The notes beneath the pieces are model-generated. The model searched no databases, was not told the DNA's origin, and was given only the letters and a program-made list of their open reading frames with translations. A program made the position numbers and the translations under genes. From positions 1,600,001-1,664,000 of the forward strand of contig CAXXSR010000001.1 of the NCBI GenBank assembly GCA_963662615.2: a DNA stretch of 64,000 nt, given 5' to 3'. Every line of letters begins with the position of its first letter. Within the stretch, counting starts at the first letter, position 1. This DNA is from Dehalococcoidia bacterium (GTDB taxonomy: Bacteria; Chloroflexota; Dehalococcoidia; Bin125). Positions 7,422-48,936 of this stretch are shown here, piece after piece.

Positions 7422-8396
7422 CTACAGGAGGGCGCGAAGCTGTTCCCGTGTCACGTTGGCGCCGGACACAACGAGAACCACGTTTTTGTCCTGGAGCCGG
7501 TCCCCTTCTTTGAGGGCCGCCGCCAGCGCGCTGGCGGCGGACGGCTCCGCGAGGACGTGCGCCAGGTCGATTAGCGTGCGCACGGCGTCCGCGATCTGCG
7601 CGTCGTCCACGAGGATGAAGTCGTTGAGGCCGCGCTGCAGGACCGCAAACGGCAGCTCATAGGCGACGCCGGTGGCCAGCCCTTCGGCAAAGGTGGCGTT
7701 GGGCCGCTCCAGCAACTGCCCGCTGCGCCAGGCATCGTGTGCGGCAGGCGCCTGCGCCGACTGCGCGGCCCAGATAGCCGCGGAGCTGTCCAAACCGTCG
7801 CGGGCCGTGATCCAGCCGCAAGCGCCCGAGCCACCGCCCAGCGGCACGATGACGACATCCGTCTCCGGCTGCTGCGTCTCCAGCACTTCCAGGGCGGCCG
7901 TCCCCACGCCGGCAATGAGCGCCGGCTCGTTGGCGGCGTGGACGAAACGGGCGCCGGCGGCGCCGGCGTCCTTCTCGGCCTGGAGGCGAGCATCGTCAAA
8001 GCGGTCACCGATCAGGACCACCTCCGCGCCGAGCCGTTTGATGGCGGTCAGTTTGTCTCGATTGGCGTTGACGGGCATGTAGATCTGCGCCCGCACGTCG
8101 AAGAGGGCGGCCGCGTAGGCGATCGATTGTCCGTGGTTGCCCGTAGAGGCCGTGATCACGCCGGCGCGACGCTCGGCGGGGGTCAGGCCGGCGAGCAGGT
8201 GGATGCCGCCCCGCACCTTAAAGGCGCCAATGGGCGTGGCCGTCTCCATCTTCAGAGAGACGTTGGCGTGCAGCTTCTCGGAGAGGCCGGGGCTGCCGAC
8301 CAGCGGCGTGGGCAGCGAAATGCGGCCGGCAAGGTTGCGCGCGGCGCGACGAATGTCGTCAAGCGTGGGCGCCTCTGTCGGGGCAGGACGCGTCAT
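7422..8396 (-). CDS. Threonine/serine dehydratase family PLP enzyme
   Basis: GAFKVRG, ASTGNHG, VPLGGGSG, VSGAN. Confidence 0.92.
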   Translation of the reverse strand: MTRPAPTEAPTLDDIRRAARNLAGRISLPTPLVGSPGLSEKLHANVSLKMETATPIGAFKVRGGIHLLAGLTPAERRAGVITASTGNHGQSIAYAAALFDVRAQIYMPVNANRDKLTAIKRLGAEVVLIGDRFDDARLQAEKDAGAAGARFVHAANEPALIAGVGTAALEVLETQQPETDVVIVPLGGGSGACGWITARDGLDSSAAIWAAQSAQAPAAHDAWRSGQLLERPNATFAEGLATGVAYELPFAVLQRGLNDFILVDDAQIADAVRTLIDLAHVLAEPSAASALAAALKEGDRLQDKNVVLVVSGANVTREQLRALL

Positions 8397-8444
8397 GGCT
8401 CGGCTGAGTGTATTGGATGGGCCGGGCGGAGCGAGGCGGTGCGA

Positions 8445-9383
8445 TCACTGCTGGGGCGCCGACCGCGGCCCAACGAGCCGGCGCTGCAAGAGGGCATCGA
8501 CCTCGGCGCGGCTGGGCATCGCCTCCTGCGCGCCCTCCTTGGTGACACAGAGCGCCCCGGCCGCCGCCGCGCAGGGGACGGCGTCCGCCAGGCCCAAGCC
8601 ATTGGCGATGCATGCGGCGAGGGCGCCGTTGAAGGCGTCGCCGGCGGCCAGGCTGGAAACGGCGTCGACGCTGTAGGCGGGATAATGCCCGCCGCCATCA
8701 TCGGCATCGACGTAGACGCCATCGGCTCCCATGGTGACGAGCACGGCTTTGGGGCCAAGTTGGCGGATGCGAGCGGCGGCCGCTGCCGCGGAGTCCGCGT
8801 CATGCACCGTGATCCCACTCCAGCGCCCTGCTTCGCCCTGATTCGGCGTGAGGATATCCACCCCGGCGAAGGCGCCGTCGGGCAGGTCAATGACCGGCGC
8901 CGGGTCCAGGATGACGGTCACGCCGCGTTCGTTGGCGGCGCGGATGCAAGCCGAGGTCACCTCCCAGGGGATCTCAAGTTGCGCCAAGAGGACCCGCGTC
9001 CCGTCTAGCAGGGCAGTGACGTCATGGAGCCGGCCGGGATCGACGAGGCGGTTGGCGCCGTAGATGGCGGCGACACCGGTGCCGGCCCCACCCTCGCAGC
9101 GGACTGCGCGGCGGTCGATGCCAGCCTCGTCGAGCCCGGCGATCATCTCGCGACCCATCCAGTCGTCGCCCACGCAGCCCACCATCGCCACGCGGTCCCT
9201 CGCTGCCAGCAGGCGCGCGGCGGCGACGGCCTGATTGCCCGCCTTGCCTCCTCGGGTGGTCCAGAAGCGCCGACCGACGACCGTCTCGCCAGCCTGCGGC
9301 AGCCGTGGGGCCTCGAAGACGAAGTTGTAGTTGAGCCCTCCGACCACCACGACCCGATTGGACGCACGGCCTGGGTTCGGCAT
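8445..9383 (-). CDS. PfkB/ribokinase-family carbohydrate kinase (divergent)
   Basis: GGKAGNQAVAAAR, VGDD, QLEIP, DPAP, TPNQGE, AAGDAFNG. Confidence 0.9.
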   Translation of the reverse strand: MPNPGRASNRVVVVGGLNYNFVFEAPRLPQAGETVVGRRFWTTRGGKAGNQAVAAARLLAARDRVAMVGCVGDDWMGREMIAGLDEAGIDRRAVRCEGGAGTGVAAIYGANRLVDPGRLHDVTALLDGTRVLLAQLEIPWEVTSACIRAANERGVTVILDPAPVIDLPDGAFAGVDILTPNQGEAGRWSGITVHDADSAAAAAARIRQLGPKAVLVTMGADGVYVDADDGGGHYPAYSVDAVSSLAAGDAFNGALAACIANGLGLADAVPCAAAAGALCVTKEGAQEAMPSRAEVDALLQRRLVGPRSAPQQ

Positions 9384-10637: not shown

Positions 10638-11936
10638 ATGAGTAGCGATGTAGAACCGCTCCTTGTGGACCTGCAGGAGGCCGCGGCGCGCGCGTCCGAG
10701 CGCTGGCGCGATCAGGATCCCAAGGCGTACACGAGCGAGCGCCTTCGCGGTCTCGGCAGCGGCACGCCCACGGACTGGGGGCTCTCCAAAACGAGCGCGG
10801 AACCCAAGGCGGCGCCGATCTCGCTGGCGGGGGGCATTCCGGACGCGGCGACACAGCCGCGCAAAGAGCTTCTGGGGGCGATGCGGCGCGCCCTGGAGAC
10901 CGAGGACGACAGCCCGCTGGTCTACGGCGGCGCGCTGGGCTACGAACCACTGCGCCACGAGATCGGTCGCTATTTCGGGAGGGACCACCGTGAGCCGCCG
11001 TCGGCGGAGCACTACCTCCTCACGAACGGCGCCGCGGGCGCCATTGACCTGGTCTGCTCGGCACTCCTGGATCCGGGCGACGTGGTGATCAGCGAGGCGC
11101 CGACGTTCCCGGGGTCGTTGCGGACGATTCGGGGGCGCGAGGCCGAGGTGGTGGGCGTGCGCATGGACGACGAGGGCATCCGCCTGGATGAGCTGGAGGC
11201 GGCGATCGGCCGGGTGGAGCGCGAAGGACGCCGCGTGAAGCTGATCTACACCATCGCGACGTTCCAGAATCCCACCGGCCAGGCGATGTCCCTGCGGCGC
11301 CGGGCGGACCTGGTCCGGCTGGCGGCGGAGCACGGCGTCTTCATCCTGGAGGACACGGCCTACGCCGATCTCTATTTCGGTGAGGAGCAGCGGCCATCGC
11401 TTTCGGCCGTGGCCGGCGGACACGGTGTGATCGCCGTGGGAACGTTCTCCAAGGTCATCGCCACGGGTCTCCGGGTCGGCTGGGTGCAGGCCCAGCCCGC
11501 GCTGATCGAAGCGATGGTCCCGGCGCGCTTCGACATGGGGAACAGCCCCCTGCTGCACCGCATGCTGTACGAATACGTGGCGCACGGCGACTTCAAGGCG
11601 CACGTCGAGCGGATGCGCGCGCTCTACAGGCGGAAAGTGCGGACGCTCACGGGCGCGCTGCGCGAGGGCGGCGAGCCTTACTTCGACTTCATCGTGCCGG
11701 AGGGCGGCTTCTTTCTCTGGCTGCACCTGCGGCCCGGGCTGTCAGCGCAAGCGGTGCAGGCGGCTGCCCTGCACGAGGGCGTGATCTTTCCCGTGGGGCA
11801 GGTGTTCTATCCCGACCGCGATCCTGGCGAGGACGGTGAATGCATCCGGCTGGCTCACTCCTGGACGTCCGCTGACGATCTGGAGGAGGCGACAGCCCGC
11901 GTCATCCGGGCCTGTGCGGCGGTGGGCGGGGGCTAG
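10638..11936 (+). CDS. PLP-dependent class I/II aminotransferase (LysN/MocR-like)
   Basis: ISLAGGIPD, FQNPTG, LEDTAY, GTFSKVIATGLRVGW, PEGGFFLW. Confidence 0.92.
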   Translation: MSSDVEPLLVDLQEAAARASERWRDQDPKAYTSERLRGLGSGTPTDWGLSKTSAEPKAAPISLAGGIPDAATQPRKELLGAMRRALETEDDSPLVYGGALGYEPLRHEIGRYFGRDHREPPSAEHYLLTNGAAGAIDLVCSALLDPGDVVISEAPTFPGSLRTIRGREAEVVGVRMDDEGIRLDELEAAIGRVEREGRRVKLIYTIATFQNPTGQAMSLRRRADLVRLAAEHGVFILEDTAYADLYFGEEQRPSLSAVAGGHGVIAVGTFSKVIATGLRVGWVQAQPALIEAMVPARFDMGNSPLLHRMLYEYVAHGDFKAHVERMRALYRRKVRTLTGALREGGEPYFDFIVPEGGFFLWLHLRPGLSAQAVQAAALHEGVIFPVGQVFYPDRDPGEDGECIRLAHSWTSADDLEEATARVIRACAAVGGG

Positions 11937-42038: not shown

Positions 42039-43586
42039 TCAGGGGAGAGTGCGAGCGGGTGCGGCCGCGGTCACCATTGAACGAACATGGGCATGAACAT
42101 CCGTCGGTGCGGAAGATGGAATCACGCCACGGAGTTCGCTTCCGTCGCGTGAGGCATCGACACGAATCTGGAGCGCGTCGAGCAGCAGATTCATATCGTC
42201 GCCCTCGGCGCTGTTGACCCACTCGCGGATTGCATCACACATCGCTCGGAGCCCCTTTGAGTCAGGCAGTTCAGGAACTGTGGCCATGACCGGCTTTGCT
42301 TGTTCGGCGAGGCGTTCTTGCTCCGCCCGGATCAACACCGTCTCACGTCGCAGATGCGGCTCGTCGATCTCACCCAGCTGGAATAGCCGCAGCAGCCGGC
42401 CGCGCTACGCCTCGAGTTCGCGTAGGCGCTGCTTGGTCCGAGCTGCCTCGTTCCTCGGGGAACCAGCGGCCGCGCTTTGCCTCCGGATCTCCGCCATGAC
42501 GATCTCCGGGCGCGAGAGCACTGCGGTGACCGCGGCGCGCACGGCATCTTCAAGGCGGTCTGCTCGCACGTACCTGGAGTCACATCGATCATGCTTCGGT
42601 CCGGCGAACGCAGCCCGGCACCGATAGTAGCGGTACTTCTGGTGCTGGGTCTGGCCAACCATTGCCCGGCCACACTCGCGGCAGCGCACACGCCCTGACA
42701 GCAGGTAGTCCCGCTTGCGGCGACCACTCCGTAGGCGCTCGGGGTCTCGGAGGCGCAACTGCACTGCGTCGAACATCTCTCTGGGCACTACCTCGGGTGT
42801 CGCTCCGGGCACCTCGATCCAATCAGCCTCGTCTCGAGGCTCTACTCGCCGAGGCCGTAAGCCCTTGCGCGGCGTCACCTTCGTCTTCCGGTACAGCGTG
42901 CGTCCGGTGTACGCCTCGTGCTGCAACAAGTGGAAGACCGTCGCTGGCGACCACTGTCCGCCAGCGAATGTCGGGGTCCCCTCGTCGTTCAGCGCGTTGC
43001 ATAGTCCGATGATCGAGCAGCCGGTCGCGAACTCGGTGAAGAGGCGCAGTACAACCTTCGCCTGTTCTGCCACGACCGTTCGTTTGCCGGTACTCGGGTC
43101 GTAGACATAGCCGTACATCCCGCGCCCGGTTCCCTGTGGCAGACGACCGGAGCGGGCCCGCTCAACTTTGCCACGCATCGTGCGCTCAGCGATCTTCTCG
43201 CGCTCGAACTCCGCTGCGAACGCCTTGACCGATCGCAGCAGCTGCCCCGTGGCTGTGTCCTCGAAGTCCTCGGTGACGAAGTGGAGCGCGACACCATGCT
43301 GCTCCATCTCCTCAACAAGGATCGCGACGTGGGTCTGCTTCCGACTCATGCGGTCGAGGGCGTGGGCCAAGACGACATCGACCTGTCCTGAGGCTGCGAG
43401 TTCCCGCATTCGCTCCATTCCGGGTCGCTCGAGAGTGAACCCACTGGCTGTGTCACGCAGAGCCTCCGCGACGATCCAGCCATCCTTCTGCGCATACTCC
43501 GCGCACGCAGCCTCCTGCGTGTCGAGCGAGGTCCCCTCACGCTCCTGGGCGTCGGTCGAGACCCGCGAGTAGATCACGCAGCGCAT
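42039..43586 (-). pseudogene. Large serine recombinase (integrase) with an in-frame TAG at 42405-42407
   Basis: YSRVST, DRMSR, recombinase domain, Zn ribbon CRECG...YYRC. The frame continues ELEA*RGRLLRLFQLGEID to 42039 (515 codons in total). Confidence 0.9.
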
Positions 43587-43768
43587 CAGGTTGCCTCCGT
43601 CTCCGACTTTGGGGACCGGCCAGGCGGCCCAATCTCGTCTCCGCTGGTGCGGTACTTCTCGTCGATGGCGTCACGCACGAGCCTCGCCATCGCCGTGTGT
43701 TGCTCGAACGCGAGGCGGCGGAGGGTCTCGTACTCATCATCGCTGATGGTCAGCACTATTCGTCTCAT
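43586..43768 (-). CDS. Ribbon-helix-helix (CopG-like) DNA-binding protein
   Basis: RIVLTISDDEYETLRRLA...MARLVRDAID; TGATG overlap with the recombinase start. Confidence 0.85.
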   Translation of the reverse strand: MRRIVLTISDDEYETLRRLAFEQHTAMARLVRDAIDEKYRTSGDEIGPPGRSPKSETEAT

Positions 43769-43805
43769 GACAATATAATTATATCACTATATTCCGCTTG
43801 AAAGG
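43769..43805 (-). promoter_or_regulatory. Extended -10 promoter with a palindromic operator for the RHH-recombinase operon
   Basis: The - strand reads TGaTATAAT 9 nt before the ATG; perfect palindrome ATATAATTATAT at 43773-43784; strongly AT-rich in a GC-rich context. Confidence 0.7.
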
Positions 43806-43823: not shown

Positions 43824-44870
43824 TCACTGCACGGCCAGGCGCGAATGGGCTGTGTCCAGATCAACCGGTAGGGGCCGGGGCGCACGGCGTTGCGCCTGGA
43901 GTCGCTGGTGCGGCCGCAGGAGGCGGTTGAGCGTCCGCATGTCGGCGATGCCGAGCGCGACCGCGACCTCGTGGTCCCGGAGGCCCGCGTCGCTCAGGTA
44001 AGCGGCAGAGGCGCTCCGCAGGGTGCTTCGCGCCGCGTGGGGAAAGCCTGAGGCGGAACATGCGCCGCGCACGATGCGCCGTGCCTGACGATCGGTCAGC
44101 GGCTCGCCGCGCGCGTTCGCGAACACGAACTCGTCAGACGGCTCCACCTTTAGACGATGGCGCGTCATGAGGGCCGCCGCAGGGCCGAAGATCGCGAGGC
44201 GTGTTCGCTGACCACCTCGCGTCGCCGCGACGCTCCACGCCTCGCCTGCGGGCTCCCATCGCAGGGCGCTCCAGCGCAGGCAGCGGATCTCGCCAGCATC
44301 GAGTCCACTGTAGCAATGGACCGTGACGAGCAGCCGATCCCGAAGCGCGCGCGGGCCTCGCTTGCCGGCTCTTGCGGCCTCCACGATGCGCAGCAGGTCG
44401 GACGGCTCGATGGTGGGGCATTGCGCGCGCCTCCGAGACCGATCTCCCGCCAAGATCACGCCGCTCTGGTACCAGTCCGTCCCATCGCGTCTCGGGAGCA
44501 TCTGGTCGAGGTCGTCGATTCGCCGTCGCCCGTCATCGTCACCGAACATCAGCAGGAGCGCCGCATGGATCGCGCCGAGTCGGATCAGCGCGGTCGTCGC
44601 TGAGGGTCGCTTGGCCGGGGAGGTCAGCACCTCAGCCAACGCCGCGGGACGAGCGAGGATCTCGGAGAGCGTGCTGCCCCGTCCCCGCCGTCCGGCCTCG
44701 CGGACAACGGACCGCAACTGCGAGACCTCGCCCCTGACCGCCCCACCCGACCGGTCTCGGCCGTGCTGCTCGCGGTAGCGGACGAGGAACGCCTCGGACT
44801 CGGCATCGAGCCGTCTGGCCATCGGTCGCTCCAGCGGATCGAGGTCAAAGAGCGTGCGCTGGAACATCAT
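43824..44870 (-). CDS. Tyrosine recombinase-like protein with degenerate catalytic residues
   Basis: RDRLLV..SGLDAGEIRCLRW, VFANARGEPLT, STLRSA, VAVALGIAD; the first Arg, both His/Trp positions and the Tyr are absent. Confidence 0.8.
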   Translation of the reverse strand: MMFQRTLFDLDPLERPMARRLDAESEAFLVRYREQHGRDRSGGAVRGEVSQLRSVVREAGRRGRGSTLSEILARPAALAEVLTSPAKRPSATTALIRLGAIHAALLLMFGDDDGRRRIDDLDQMLPRRDGTDWYQSGVILAGDRSRRRAQCPTIEPSDLLRIVEAARAGKRGPRALRDRLLVTVHCYSGLDAGEIRCLRWSALRWEPAGEAWSVAATRGGQRTRLAIFGPAAALMTRHRLKVEPSDEFVFANARGEPLTDRQARRIVRGACSASGFPHAARSTLRSASAAYLSDAGLRDHEVAVALGIADMRTLNRLLRPHQRLQAQRRAPRPLPVDLDTAHSRLAVQ

Positions 44871-46068
44871 CCGCTCGCACGGGCTCCGCTCGCGGCTGGG
44901 CGCCGTCCACGCCGAGGCCGCTGAGTTTCGTCCAGACCGCCGCGCGGCTGGGCGTCACATAGGAGGCGTCGAACCGCTCCGTCCCCCGCCAGCCGCCACC
45001 GAGCACGGCCTCCCAGCGGGGCAGCACCGCGGCCGCCCCTGTCGCCCACGCCCGGCGGAAAGCATGGGGCGTGTAGTCGGGTGTCCCTGCGAGGCGGCAC
45101 GCGTGCCGGAGCGCCGCCCGCATCGTCTTGTCCGGCAACTGCGCGCCACGCTCCGTCCGCCAGACTGGCCCAGGTTGCCCGAGGGCGATGCGATCGGGGC
45201 GTCCCGCGGTCCGCATCGTCTCGTTGAACCCGAACACGTACAGCCGCAGCGCCTGGCACGACTCGCGATCCAGTTCCACCTCGTGGCGCTCGCGCCCGTT
45301 CTTCTGGTGCAGGAGGACGCGGACGCGGTCGTCCGGCAGGACGTGGCAGTCCGTCCCATCGAGCGTCCGGAGCGCGTGTCCGCGCGAGGCCGTCCTGGCG
45401 AGCAGTGTCGCGAAGGCGCGATCGCGAAGGCCGAGCCAGCCCTCGGCGCGCCCCATCGCCGTGATGATGGCGCGTAGTTCCTCTGGGCGCGGCGTCGGGC
45501 CCCCGCGTCTTCGCGGCGTCCCTGCGGTGATGCGGTATCCTCCACCTCGCCGTTCGGCAACGCGCCGCAAGGCGTCACGGATGATCTCGTGCGGGTCGCG
45601 CCCGAGGGCCGTCTGGAGTTCGGGGCGCAATATGGTCGCAACCGAGCGGATGGCGGTCCGGCGATGCGCGATCGTGGATTTGGAACAGACACGACCGCTC
45701 GCGCACCGGTCCGAGACCAGCATCCGGCCGAGCAGTTCAGGATTGGCGAACAGGTCCGGAATGCCGACGCGGCGCCCGGTTTCGGCAGAGGCGCAGGCAA
45801 GCATCTCGTTCCTCAGCCAGCGGTACGTCTGCATGCTCCGGGTGCGCAGTCGTCCTTCGGCCCGCTCTTCGTACAGCCGGTCGAGGTCGTCACGCTGCGG
45901 TGGGGCGATGGGCTGGCAGCGGTAGGTGCGGCGGCGAACCTTGGGCGGCCTGAGTCCCTCAAAGTCGGGGAGCGCGAACCGGCGCTGATCCGACCCTGAA
46001 ACCCGTACCGACAGGGGCGGGAGTACATCGCAAAACCGGCCGGACTTTCGGGCGGGGCGGGGAAACAT
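44845..46068 (-). CDS. Tyrosine recombinase/integrase
   Basis: RDRAF..TASR, QKNG, TPHAFRRAWAT, GGW, ASY give a full R-K-HxxR-W-Y set; start uncertain. Confidence 0.85.
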   Translation of the reverse strand: MFPRPARKSGRFCDVLPPLSVRVSGSDQRRFALPDFEGLRPPKVRRRTYRCQPIAPPQRDDLDRLYEERAEGRLRTRSMQTYRWLRNEMLACASAETGRRVGIPDLFANPELLGRMLVSDRCASGRVCSKSTIAHRRTAIRSVATILRPELQTALGRDPHEIIRDALRRVAERRGGGYRITAGTPRRRGGPTPRPEELRAIITAMGRAEGWLGLRDRAFATLLARTASRGHALRTLDGTDCHVLPDDRVRVLLHQKNGRERHEVELDRESCQALRLYVFGFNETMRTAGRPDRIALGQPGPVWRTERGAQLPDKTMRAALRHACRLAGTPDYTPHAFRRAWATGAAAVLPRWEAVLGGGWRGTERFDASYVTPSRAAVWTKLSGLGVDGAQPRAEPVRADDVPAHAL

Positions 46069-46247
46069 GGTGACACCGGGTTCCGAGGTCGATGGGGTGG
46101 GACTCTCGATCCCCCCTCCCCCATCAGCGGAACCAGTGTCAGAGGAAAATGTCTGATCGCTGCTTAGTAGTAGTCGTATTCGTCGTCGGCGTCGCAGTTC
46201 GTGACCCGGAGTGGTGTGCATCGATCGGAGCCCGCGCGGCAACGGCA

Positions 46248-46403
46248 CTACTGGCCCTCCTCGCCGCACGAGTCGCCGAGCCGTTCGCGAGCCACCGCGA
46301 GCAGGCGACGCCACAACGCCTCCCACGCGAGCGAGCGGTACCGTGCTTTCCCCACGTAGCACTGCACTTCGTTCACGGGGCGTTCGAGTCGGTCGGCAGC
46401 CAT
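46248..46403 (-). CDS. Small hypothetical protein (51 aa; below the ORF-track cutoff)
   Basis: MAADRLERPVNEVQCYVGKARYRSLAWEALWRRLLAVARERLGDSCGEEGQ; co-oriented with neighbours; its TAG overlaps a GTG in the recombinase frame. Confidence 0.5.
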   Translation of the reverse strand: MAADRLERPVNEVQCYVGKARYRSLAWEALWRRLLAVARERLGDSCGEEGQ

Positions 46404-46465
46404 GCCCCGATCGAAGCAGAGCTAGGCGAGGCGTTCGTGGGATCACCGTGGAGCTTGGACGTAAT

Positions 46466-48172
46466 TTAGGCGTGTTTTGGGGGGAAGTTCAGCCGGTAGT
46501 GCCGACCCTTCTCGGGAACGACGAGGTTCTTCCAAGCAGCTGAGTCCCTGAACACCTCACTCACGCGCGTGGTGTTCGTGGCAATCCCCTTGAGGGCGTC
46601 GTGGGTGCGCAACGCACGGATGCCCGCCTCGTGTGCGCGGTGCAGATTCTTGACGACCTGCGCTTGTGGCGGCGTCAGCGTGAACTCAGCGTCGCCGAGA
46701 CGCACCGACTCGTAGCTCTCGGTGTGGGTGAACGGGGGAACCGCTGGAGCGTCATCCACCTTGGCAGCCGCCATCACGAGGAGCGAGTGCTGCGGCAGCT
46801 CCCCTCGTGCTAGTGACCCAGCGGCGCGCTCGACCATGCTGGACAGGACCGCCAGTACCGTCTCTGAGTGGCGGACCAGCATATCGAGGTACGCTTCCAG
46901 GTCCTGGGTCTCGCGCCCCTTTCGCAAAGCCGTGATCACGTCCGGATACGCCTCAACGGCTCCCTGATCCGAAAGCGTGCCCAGATCGCGTGCGAAGCGC
47001 ACGTACGAGACCGCGGTCGTTCGCGGATCACCCTCAGGAAGCTCGTCCAGGAACACATCCACGCCGTAACGCTCCGGCGGGTCGTACTCTTCCAATTCGG
47101 TCCCCACAGTAGCGAACCGGCGGTCGATACACTGCGAGCAGTAGCCGCAGTGGGGCCGCGTCCTAGAGCGCCGCTGCGAGTTCACGCATGAGAGCGTCGC
47201 GCCGATCAAGTCCGGCTGCCCAGCGGCAGCGATCTGCTCCACGACCTGGCGCCGCGTGCGGTCCCATAGTGGATTCCTGACCTCCGGCGCCTGACCGAGC
47301 ACCGCGGTGGCCAGCGTATTCAACAGAGCGATGAACCGGGGGTGCGTCGAGCGGGAGGCCCGGCTACCGACGAGCTGTCGGTTTATCGGCAGGTTCAAGC
47401 TAACGACACCGTTGTCCGACAAGAAAACCACGGCGGCGTCCATCCGGTGCGCCGCGGCCAGGGCGAGGGACCCATAGAGGAAGGCCCGTGACCGTCGCGT
47501 GCGTTCGCGCGCCTCGTCTCCGGTGCGATGCACTGCCGCCTCGAGCATCGAGAAGCTATCGCTGCCGAACCGTTGCCGAAGTTCCTCGGCGATCCTGCGG
47601 CGCTCGCCTTCGACCAACCCCCAGCTCCGATGCGAGACGAGCAGAGGCCGCCGCTTCTCAGTGAGTTCAGCGAGAACCGTCGCCAGCGAGTCCATCCCGC
47701 CGGAGAAGAGCACCACGACATCCGTCGAGAGGCCCCTCCTCGGCCCCGCTTCGGGCAGCAGCAATTGCCGATCCTCATCAGCGCCAGCCGGCTCAAAGGC
47801 GAACCGCCACTGATCCTGCGTGAGGAAGCCGACGCACTCCTGGAGCGCTCGGGTGACCGGAGGCGAGGACCAGACGTCCGGCGCATTGACGGGAATGGCC
47901 AGCCGCAGGTCTCGCTCCCAGTGCTCGAGTTTCCAATCCGCGCGGCCGCCGCGAGAGACCGTTTGGTCCGCGGCGTAGACGTAGCTCGCGATGCGGACGA
48001 GGTCGTAGGCGCGCCCATCCAGACGCCCGGCGAACGCGTGCTCGAGGTCCTCGATCCGGAGATTCATGGTCCTGCGTGGGCCACGCGTGTGCAGGGCCAC
48101 AGTCTCGACATCGCCGCCCCGCCACTCGCGCGGGATGGTGGCACCGTCGCAGGGGAAGACGACGGCGCTCAC
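46466..48172 (-). CDS. QatC/QueC-like PP-loop enzyme with a C-terminal winged-helix-like domain
   Basis: LFSGGMDS, RSRAFLY, DNGVVSLNLP, SRSTHP, SC...HCGYCSQCIDRR; GTGA overlap with the upstream stop. Confidence 0.88.
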   Translation of the reverse strand: MSAVVFPCDGATIPREWRGGDVETVALHTRGPRRTMNLRIEDLEHAFAGRLDGRAYDLVRIASYVYAADQTVSRGGRADWKLEHWERDLRLAIPVNAPDVWSSPPVTRALQECVGFLTQDQWRFAFEPAGADEDRQLLLPEAGPRRGLSTDVVVLFSGGMDSLATVLAELTEKRRPLLVSHRSWGLVEGERRRIAEELRQRFGSDSFSMLEAAVHRTGDEARERTRRSRAFLYGSLALAAAHRMDAAVVFLSDNGVVSLNLPINRQLVGSRASRSTHPRFIALLNTLATAVLGQAPEVRNPLWDRTRRQVVEQIAAAGQPDLIGATLSCVNSQRRSRTRPHCGYCSQCIDRRFATVGTELEEYDPPERYGVDVFLDELPEGDPRTTAVSYVRFARDLGTLSDQGAVEAYPDVITALRKGRETQDLEAYLDMLVRHSETVLAVLSSMVERAAGSLARGELPQHSLLVMAAAKVDDAPAVPPFTHTESYESVRLGDAEFTLTPPQAQVVKNLHRAHEAGIRALRTHDALKGIATNTTRVSEVFRDSAAWKNLVVPEKGRHYRLNFPPKHA

Positions 48173-48936
48173 GAGCTTTGCGCCTCCCGCTTCAGCTCGC
48201 TGCGTATCTTCCGGAGCGCGACGGCCGTGAAGCGCTCGGCGTCGGCTTGCGGAATGTCCTGGCCGGTCTCCCAGCCCCGCTTCGAGAGCCATTCGCCAGC
48301 GAAGTCGCGAACGATTCCCGCAGACTGCCGCGCGTGCAGATCGACGGCCGCAAGGACCTCGGTCCCGGCCGCCACGCTGGAGAGAACATTGGGAATCTCC
48401 CGATCGAGCGCAGCCGTCAGCACCCGCGCGAGAAAGTCCCCAAAGAACTTCTGAGACACCTCGCCGAACTGGCGCTCCGTGGAGTGCGCGCGGAACGCAC
48501 GCTCCAGATCCTCAACCGTGCCGCCGAACAGGCTCGTCGCCTGCGTCGCCACCGTCTCCAGCAGGGCGCGGCGGAAGGCCTGGGTGGCGTACTCGCCGGC
48601 GACGGACGTCGAGCCCGCCTGCGCGATGTCGGCCCGCAGGCGGTCCGAGAGTTGCGTGATGAGTGCGACCGAAGAGGTGCCGTCGGCCGCCTCGACGCCG
48701 AGCTGCTCCAGCTCCGGGCCGAGCCGCCCGGCCCGCGAAGCGGACATGAGGCGGACCAGGAGCCAGTACGAGCGCGTAAGAGACGGATCGGTGGCCAGAC
48801 GGCGGAGGTAGTCTTCCGCCGCCACGACGGAGGCAGCGGCGACCGCGGCGGTATCGCCGTGGTCCGCAGTCAGGCGATCGACGACCTGCACCCAGCGATC
48901 CCGCTTTGGCAACCGGCCCAGGCGGTTGTGTCCCAT
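48169..48936 (-). CDS. Helical hypothetical protein starting MGHNRLG; putative QatB-like partner
   Basis: Translationally coupled to the QueC-like gene; Gly at position 2; predicted all-helical; no catalytic motif seen. Confidence 0.75.
   Translation of the reverse strand: MGHNRLGRLPKRDRWVQVVDRLTADHGDTAAVAAASVVAAEDYLRRLATDPSLTRSYWLLVRLMSASRAGRLGPELEQLGVEAADGTSSVALITQLSDRLRADIAQAGSTSVAGEYATQAFRRALLETVATQATSLFGGTVEDLERAFRAHSTERQFGEVSQKFFGDFLARVLTAALDREIPNVLSSVAAGTEVLAAVDLHARQSAGIVRDFAGEWLSKRGWETGQDIPQADAERFTAVALRKIRSELKREAQSS

Follow-up and report, generated by a model that had tools for sequence, protein, structure and literature searches.

A 64,000-nucleotide stretch of the genome of a Dehalococcoidia bacterium (assembly GCA_963662615.2, contig CAXXSR010000001.1, positions 1,600,001 to 1,664,000; in the following, the window) carries on its minus strand two adjacent genes of the tyrosine recombinase family, YR1 and YR2. 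YR1 is catalytically complete. YR2 is a full-length paralogue of YR1 which has lost its catalytic residues throughout its family and is kept under purifying selection. The pair recurs in other genomes, has moved between genomes and is preceded by a conserved DNA motif. The interpretation towards which we lean is that the two genes form an old, co-diverging recombination module in which YR1 is the enzyme and YR2 its non-cleaving partner in a heteromer. A heteromer with only one cleaving subunit is the mechanism that our data support best; the heteromer itself, the chemistry on one strand and the DNA that would be recombined are what we infer from the observations below.

On the minus strand the gene order is QatC-like gene, 51-amino acid (aa) open reading frame (ORF), YR1, YR2, ribbon-helix-helix (RHH)-like gene and large serine recombinase (Table 1). 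An initial annotation made from the DNA alone had noted two overlapping, co-oriented and uninterrupted ORFs, a 51-aa ORF before them and a serine integrase beside them. All of these are present, and the serine recombinase has the three expected domains; its frame, however, is cut by a TAG codon. The YR1 ORF (44845-46446) could encode 533 aa at most, and the database gene call (P0028) begins at the ATG at 46071. The YR2 ORF (43824-44870) comprises 348 aa, its second Met (44867) being the start in relatives. YR1 and YR2 are translationally coupled; they overlap by 23-26 nucleotides (nt) in the window and by 4-26 nt among the five loci measured. Both proteins match Pfam PF00589 above the cut-off of 27.1 bits, YR1 with 36.3 and YR2 with 51.9 bits.

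In an alignment of YR1 with relatives of 35-81% identity (24 sequences), R230, K257, R339, W361 and Y371 are invariant and H336 is nearly so. The same catalytic set is kept in every locus copy that covers these columns. A YR1 profile matched XerD (1a0p) with an E-value of 2.3e-5, and the conserved residues fall on Arg-I, Lys and H-x-x-R of XerD. The alignment of relatives confirms the R-K-HxxR-W-Y set that had been read from the first ORF. An apparent N-terminal peptide of YR1, 'LLSxDQTF', was rejected: it is really the DNA motif described below, which lies in another frame in other members and is preceded by unrelated sequence.

In the YR2 protein of the window Arg-I is replaced by Asp (SGLDAGE), His-II by Ser, His/Trp-III by Ile and the Tyr nucleophile by Leu. 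These columns were assigned through a profile alignment to archaeal XerA structures (XerA 4a8e). None of the 22 close relatives (54-92% identity) has the Tyr, which is Leu or Arg there, or His-II or His/Trp-III, and Arg-I is kept only in P0018. The Tyr nucleophile is also absent from 13 of 13 YR2 locus copies. A profile search of 1.84 billion representatives with YR2 returned 486 proteins at E <= 1e-3, 130 of them at <= 1e-10 and 64 at <= 1e-30. From the close relatives and the best 150 of these 486 matches, 88 matches of 300-420 aa were combined with the window protein in a table of 89 rows. The nucleophile column of this table holds Tyr in three rows (P0134, P0210 and P0218) and Leu or another residue in 81, and five rows are gapped or misaligned; P0210 and P0218 are ordinary canonical enzymes and among the weakest of the matches listed. 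More distant YR2 members retain Arg-I and Arg-II, whereas the window subclade has lost Arg-I and mostly also Arg-II. The catalytic loss noticed at the outset in the second ORF is therefore family-wide, as close relatives, table and locus copies agree.

Despite this loss YR2 is predicted to have the full two-domain recombinase fold, with a core-binding and a catalytic domain. The AlphaFold model, built from 76 sequences, has a mean pLDDT of 92.8 and a pTM of 0.80, and the best matches found for it with Foldseek were XerA, XerH, XerD, IntI4, Cre, lambda Int and the Tn1549 integrase. These are full-length matches (313-345 of 347 columns, E-values down to 8e-8). The C-terminal tail past the lost Tyr is conserved as well (T313, R316, L318, H321, L324, Q327, R328). 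With hhalign, the profiles of YR1 and YR2 align over 284 columns (probability 99%, E-value 1.8e-18, 21% identity), and thus the two proteins are whole-length paralogues, which fits the similar core-binding regions remarked on initially.

Both genes are under purifying selection, with similar values. Between the window and L011 or L004, dN/dS (NG86) is 0.20-0.21 for YR2 and 0.21 for YR1, and in the comparisons with L005 it is 0.32-0.38 and 0.38-0.39, respectively. The 22 YR2 relatives share 64 invariant columns, and the frame is open in all full-length copies. YR2 is hence a conserved pseudo-enzyme.

To describe the family we examined 15 YR2-family loci (the window, L004, L005, L006, L011, L012, L013, L014 and L045-L051). 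YR1 lies immediately upstream of YR2 on the same strand in 12 of them, and the three exceptions (L013, L014 and L050) are 5'-truncated YR2 remnants. Three copies of the pair, namely the window, L011 and L012, are in the genome of the window itself. Because the pair is present three times in its own genome and also in other genomes, chance occurrence is excluded; the two genes recur together, and the doubt that the pair might not be conserved has been removed. The pairwise identities of YR1 and of YR2 are closely correlated (r = 0.96, 55 pairs). In a joint tree YR1 forms a single clade (support 100/100) and so does YR2 (100/98), and both split into the same three subclades. Fragmentary copies were left out, L048 and L051 from the YR1 rows and L050 and L051 from the YR2 rows. 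The joint tree and the family-wide loss indicate that the duplication and the loss of chemistry predate the spread of the family.

In a sample of the phylum, two of 401 genomes matched, the genome of the window and one with an ordinary Xer-like enzyme. In a sample of the class, 9 of 401 genomes contained a member of the family, that of the window being one of them; one match, G588, lies inside the L004 contig range and was counted together with L004. A tblastn search of 72,556 plasmids with YR1 and YR2 gave no match at E 1e-5. Weak matches (L007-L010, L016, L018/L029 and L052) were judged to be ordinary recombinases or fragments and set aside.

Seven loci (the window, L004, L011, L012, L046, L047 and L049) each have a single ACTAAG-N4-GATC sequence upstream of YR1, on the same strand as the gene and 33-160 nt before the start of the YR1 alignment. 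L005 has a variant of the motif, the exact pattern is missing in L006, L045 and L051, and the L048 sequence starts within YR1. The 2.66-Mb genome contains four occurrences, three of which are at the three YR1 genes. Ahead of the motif, the sequences of the family members are unrelated. A box of ~95 nt, lying further upstream, is common to L011, L004 and L005 (63 invariant columns of 111); its folding is no better than that of shuffled sequences (z = -1.5, -1.0 and +1.2).

Two further observations concern the DNA next to the motif. Just before it stands a CTA repeat, with three copies in the window (46169-46177), two in L011 (7884-7892) and one in L004 (~8694), and the elements that differ in copy number are otherwise 97-100% identical there. 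Two independent IS3-family elements (L012 7016-8060; P0031) are inserted ~10-50 nt upstream of the motif, and in both the IS3 frame reads through into YR1. These insertions may reflect a target preference of the insertion sequence or a fragile site.

The mobility of the pair is most apparent in a comparison of L011 with L004, which belongs to another Dehalococcoidia genome. The two have 2573 bp in common at 98.1% identity (7686-10256 in L011). This stretch contains only YR1 and YR2 with ~400 bp upstream, of which the first 200 bp are absent from the window copy, and ~50 bp downstream. Beyond it L011 and L004 are unrelated on both sides, and the best matches of the L004 housekeeping flanks in the genome of the window are only 65-70% identical. 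Given the high identity inside and these flanks, the pair has recently been exchanged as a discrete unit. In L004 a ComEC-type ORF with a DUF4131 domain (7698-8627) runs into the left edge of the unit and may have been truncated by its insertion. To the right of the unit is an ORF (11084-11593) whose start, judged by eye, we take to resemble the N-terminus of the Type I methyltransferase HsdM.

The window copy is 78% identical to the 2.57-kb unit over 2.27 kb. Outside a tract of ~310 bp the identity between the window and L011 pairs varies from 58 to 88% (60-nt windows). The tract (46171 to ~45860) begins exactly where homology starts, at the motif, and the match to a metagenome contig with the other type of copy covers exactly 45845-46171. 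We read the tract as a gene conversion between two copies in the same genome, its left limit being the end of homology.

The course of events that we favour for the module is the following. YR2 is a duplicate of YR1 that lost its chemistry before the family diversified and kept the whole two-domain fold. The module can travel alone (~2.6 kb) but is more often found directly upstream of a presumably separately transcribed unit of a small gene and a large serine recombinase, where defence-gene islands of Dehalococcoidia and other Chloroflexota have their edge. YR1 and YR2 may assemble like XerC and XerD as a hetero-oligomer on asymmetric sites, with YR2 providing the DNA binding and the partner contacts that the recombinase tetramer needs. 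Cleavage by YR1 only would then exchange one pair of strands and leave a Holliday junction or a nicked circle for the host to finish. [quoted passage not shown] A more far-reaching version, which we regard as doubtful, is a minimal and self-sufficient 'half-dead' machine. In such a machine the dead subunit would fix which strand pair can be exchanged, the movement would be one-stranded and resemble copy-out, and the pair would dock repeatedly, independently of phylogeny, upstream of serine-integrase modules and hitch-hike on their islands.

Several observations weigh against a recombination module. The left motif is not repeated, in direct or inverted orientation, downstream of YR2 or elsewhere in the loci, and local alignment of the left-motif region with the 460 nt around the YR2 stop was no better than with random genome segments (p = 0.16-0.66). 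A repeat search in L011 found no terminal repeats, and no ends of the element were found. No empty site was found in relatives, too little of the L011 flank being common for a reconstruction; in relatives of the window genome, the sequences that flank the window island on its left and right do not adjoin, and no empty site was found for it either. Of the ten public runs that contain the stretch, four were compared, all as assembled contigs. Neither a circle junction nor an empty site was seen in these contigs, in which the island region is fragmented; contig joints there have short sides of 21-39 nt, are unreliable and carry no weight for or against excision. Furthermore, IS3 copies lie 1.8-2.2 kb downstream of the unit in both L011 and L004, with unrelated DNA in between, and the unit could have been moved by other machinery. 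The family is also rare, as the class sample shows. Finally, YR2 of the window subclade is without Arg-I and mostly without Arg-II, the residues that contact the scissile phosphate, and its binding to a core site may therefore be weakened.

Some of these points would also suit a recombinase-derived regulator. In that case YR2 would be an operon repressor or a directionality factor that binds the upstream motif, and not a subunit of the synapse. The only conserved cis element that we found lies in the promoter or leader region, a second site was not found in the loci, and the window subclade has lost even the phosphate-binding arginines. For a regulator, however, neither an intact fold of both domains nor the C-terminal tail with which recombinases contact one another's subunits would have been required. 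Moreover, the strict co-divergence and the gene overlap suggest a one-to-one stoichiometry of YR1 and YR2, and in excerpts of the reports on GInt and SE the dead partners are described as required for recombination itself. On balance we consider it unlikely that YR2 is a regulator, and prefer the non-cleaving subunit of a YR1-YR2 heteromer.

The neighbouring serine recombinase raises the question of which enzyme serves which DNA. Of the 12 loci with at least 1 kb beyond YR2, eight (the window, L012 and L046-L051) have a large serine recombinase after it, encoded on the same strand. There is none after YR2 in L011, L004, L045 and L014; the L005 and L006 sequences end too soon after YR2 to judge. 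The gene is intact in L012, L046 and L049 and damaged in L047 (internal deletion), L050 (frameshift) and L051 (fragment). In the window its frame spans 42405-43586, followed by read-through to 42039. The TAG at 42405-42407, where L012 has Gln (CAG), comes after residue 393 and removes the last 122 codons, for which reason the window island is probably immobile.

Between YR2 and the serine recombinase, the stop of the RHH-like gene overlaps the start of the serine recombinase (TGATG). Homologues of the RHH-like protein (57-61% identity) occupy the same position in L046 and L048. The AT-rich stretch with TATAAT (GC 0.20 as compared with ~67% in the genome) has similar counterparts in the same two loci and is likely the promoter of the RHH-serine recombinase unit. 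The small gene in L047 (8960-9100) and L049 (9525-9620) encodes a Cys-rich 'GYCWCGCG' peptide, and the one in L050 (6545-6700) resembles, by eye, a Phd/YefM-type antitoxin.

By several sequence comparisons the serine recombinase lies at the edge of the island. Homology with three relatives resumes at genome positions 1684112-1684115, 25 nt short of the stop codon of the serine recombinase in L012; L046 is at the same chromosomal site in another family; and the similarity between the window serine recombinase and the fragment in a relative stops near 42073. It is also a separate module with a phylogeny uncoupled from that of the pair. The identities of the serine recombinases do not follow those of the pairs (r = 0.02, 10 pairs). 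In L048 and L049, which are from one genus, the serine recombinases are 90% identical and the right flank is common, whereas the pairs are only 44-49% identical; the DNA similarity of these two loci begins at the serine recombinase start. One protein, P0069, is a chimera of 492 aa composed of ~205 N-terminal residues of a serine recombinase and the C-terminal two thirds of an L012-type YR1, a sign of rearrangement between the two modules.

The pair might also be an accessory of islands that are integrated by the serine recombinase, used for multimer resolution or for an integron-like exchange of cargo at the motif. The frequency with which the serine recombinase follows YR2, the return of core synteny just before its stop in L012, the variable cargo upstream of the motif, which includes defence genes, and the chimeric P0069 are all consistent with such a role. 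Yet the phylogenies are uncoupled, L011, L004 and L045 have the pair but no serine recombinase, the pair has moved by itself as the 2.57-kb unit, and a promoter-like region of its own precedes the RHH-serine recombinase unit. We judge the accessory role to be quite unlikely. The same evidence bears on the initial suggestion that integration is done by the serine recombinase: the position at the island edge in the loci with all three genes speaks for it, and the uncoupled phylogeny, the broken gene in the window and the independent movement of the pair speak against it.

The two other explanations can be dismissed briefly. The missing catalytic residues and the truncated copies in L013, L014 and L050 could suggest that YR2 is a functionless pseudogene, but this is extremely improbable and already refuted, since all close relatives are equally dead instead of retaining the catalytic residues as simple decay would predict, dN/dS is 0.20, the genes overlap, the YR1 and YR2 trees mirror each other, frames are open with 64 columns invariant in 22 relatives, and the loss is older than the diversification of the family. 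XerC and XerD are paralogues that act together as a heterotetramer on an asymmetric site; both are catalytically competent and encoded by unlinked host genes, with one system per chromosome, and in some reactions of Xer-exploiting elements one partner cleaves and the host resolves the junction. That the present pair is such a host system for chromosome dimer resolution has a negligible probability and is likewise refuted: the pair likewise combines two different proteins of Xer-like fold, and its best solved relatives are Xer proteins, but one genome has three diverged copies, most relatives searched have none, the NCBIfam XerC/XerD scores of 15-26 bits are far below the cut-offs of 330-335, and elsewhere in the genome are genes that match PF00589 far better (174 and 156 bits).

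Among known elements with more than one recombinase, Tn554 presumably has its long protein second in gene order. It has two tyrosine recombinase genes side by side, and transposition requires each of them (as cited in an excerpt of PMC3414803). TnpA and TnpB both have catalytic motifs according to excerpts of PMC3414803 and PMC10214605, and the small tnpC is required; YR2, in contrast, is not catalytic, and the 2.57-kb unit contains no tnpC-like gene. RIT elements resemble the pair as tandem tyrosine recombinase genes that form a putative small mobile unit. However, they have three genes and no defining dead member, Table 1 of PMC3414803, as excerpted, giving an R-H...Y motif for each of the three families, whereas the present module has two genes, one of them dead. 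BIM modules were rejected for comparison, as they consist of a recombinase and an SMC-like protein and not of two recombinases.

The initial view that no known system fits has to be corrected, however, as GInt and SE elements already carry recombinase-fold proteins without catalytic residues. GInts have a ginABCD operon, of which all four genes including ginC are required for excision and integration; GinC has a recombinase fold without catalytic residues, and the elements insert site-specifically and carry adaptive cargo (Bardaji et al. 2017; excerpts of PMC5385486). In GInts, as here, a recombinase operon marks one end of a cargo island and one of its members has a dead fold. GInts have two catalytic recombinases, GinC and the small GinD, whereas here one catalytic and one dead protein are found and a GinD-like gene is absent from the pair-only unit. 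The loci lack the GInt operon, which has three recombinase-like genes and the small ginD at the 5' end of the island: each locus has only two recombinase-like genes, and the gene behind YR2, where there is one, is RHH-like or another small ORF with a promoter-like region of its own and a serine recombinase after it. The hosts given for ginC-ginD blocks in the same excerpts are Gamma- and Betaproteobacteria instead of Chloroflexota, and these excerpts describe no serine recombinase for GInts, which is often coupled to the pair here.

SE elements have the gene order intA-tfp-intB-srap and exchange only one strand (excerpts of PMC9345347 and PMC10214605). Tfp, described as a 'tyrosine recombinase fold protein', lacks the RHRY motif and is encoded in a translationally coupled operon by the promoter-bearing left end (excerpt of PMC10214605). 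As in GInts, the recombinase operon of SEs marks one end of the island. In the excerpts of both reports SEs are restricted to Gammaproteobacteria and have imperfect inverted repeats of 13-19 bp at their ends, Tfp homologues of <550 aa were filtered as truncated, and the recombinase fold of Tfp lies in mid-protein. The likeness to the present pair is a dead recombinase-fold protein inside a coupled recombinase operon, and the one-strand exchange of SEs is the outcome that would be expected of a half-dead complex. The differences are four core genes, with two active enzymes and a fourth, small protein, as opposed to two genes with one active enzyme, and a Tfp of at least 550 aa as opposed to a YR2 of ~335-347 aa, which is a whole-length paralogue of its own partner. 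SE-type terminal inverted repeats were not found at the present loci.

GInt and SE were compared with the pair by their descriptions. On this basis we read the pair as a two-gene variant of the GInt/SE kind in another phylum. Of the undescribed element class proposed earlier, the two-gene arrangement is indeed new, but the class is not wholly so. In the literature searched, no tyrosine recombinase paired with a dead paralogue is described beyond GInt and SE, nor is a recurrent coupling of a tyrosine-recombinase module with a large serine integrase.

Table 1. Features of the YR1-YR2 locus, in window coordinates
Feature	Position	Strand	Remarks
YR1, catalytically complete tyrosine recombinase	44845..46071	-	407 aa as called; ORF open to 46446
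YR2, full-length catalytically dead YR1 paralogue	43824..44867	-	347 aa; 23-nt overlap with the end of YR1
Motif ACTAAG-N4-GATC upstream of YR1	46155..46168	-	candidate operator, promoter or core site
Tract of ~310 bp, 97-100% identical to the second copy in the same genome (L011)	45860..46171	-	from sliding identity
51-aa ORF with W-x-E-L-W-R-R motif	46248..46403	-	motif recurs in 2 other loci
AT-rich stretch with TATAAT, between YR2 and the RHH gene	43767..43794	-	GC 0.20 over 30 nt
RHH-like gene, 60 aa	43586..43768	-	weak RHH matches below cut-offs
Large serine recombinase, in-frame TAG at 42405-42407	42039..43586	-	Resolvase, Recombinase and Zn_ribbon_recom domains
QatC-like gene	46466-48292	-	208 bits against an NCBIfam cut-off of 280; PADLOC QatC
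255-aa ORF (orf255)	48169-48936	-	order kept in one other island (L046)

The module in the window (region 42039-64000) and that in L012 (genome 1672000-1691000) are diverged, face outward and bracket ~34 kb. This interior contains a QatC-like gene, a GajB-like helicase gene, a Type III restriction-modification system, an HNH protein, DISARM drmABC and IS3 copies. Because related genomes do not have the two flanks next to each other, an inversion and two adjacent islands are both possible. L046 has the same six genes in the same order (orf255, QatC-like, YR1, YR2, RHH, serine recombinase) at 30-61% identity.

The QatC-like protein (608 aa) and the 255-aa ORF form a pair without QatA, QatB or QatD alongside. 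The only match of orf255 is a weak one to DUF3877 (E 0.022), with none above threshold. Both genes also precede the recombinase pair in L046, with 38-45% identity, and may represent a two-gene variant of the Qat defence system. The W-x-E-L-W-R-R motif of the 51-aa ORF is also found upstream of YR1 in L046 and L049; the sole family match of this ORF is DUF7650 with 18 bits, below the cut-off of 27.

Dead recombinase-fold proteins are essential in GInt and SE, where they act within sets of four interdependent genes. The present pair has the simplest form of such a system, with an enzyme, its dead paralogue and a motif in 2.6 kb. It extends this kind of element from Proteobacteria to Chloroflexota and brings with it a recurrent physical coupling of a tyrosine-recombinase module to a large serine integrase where defence islands end. 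If an obligate non-cleaving role of YR2 holds true, half-of-the-sites activity and strand choice of tyrosine recombinases could be tested directly on the pair, which might also supply tools for one-strand recombination. Should the pair even be a self-sufficient half-dead machine, it would offer the simplest model found in nature for the chemistry that has been proposed for SE and GInt.

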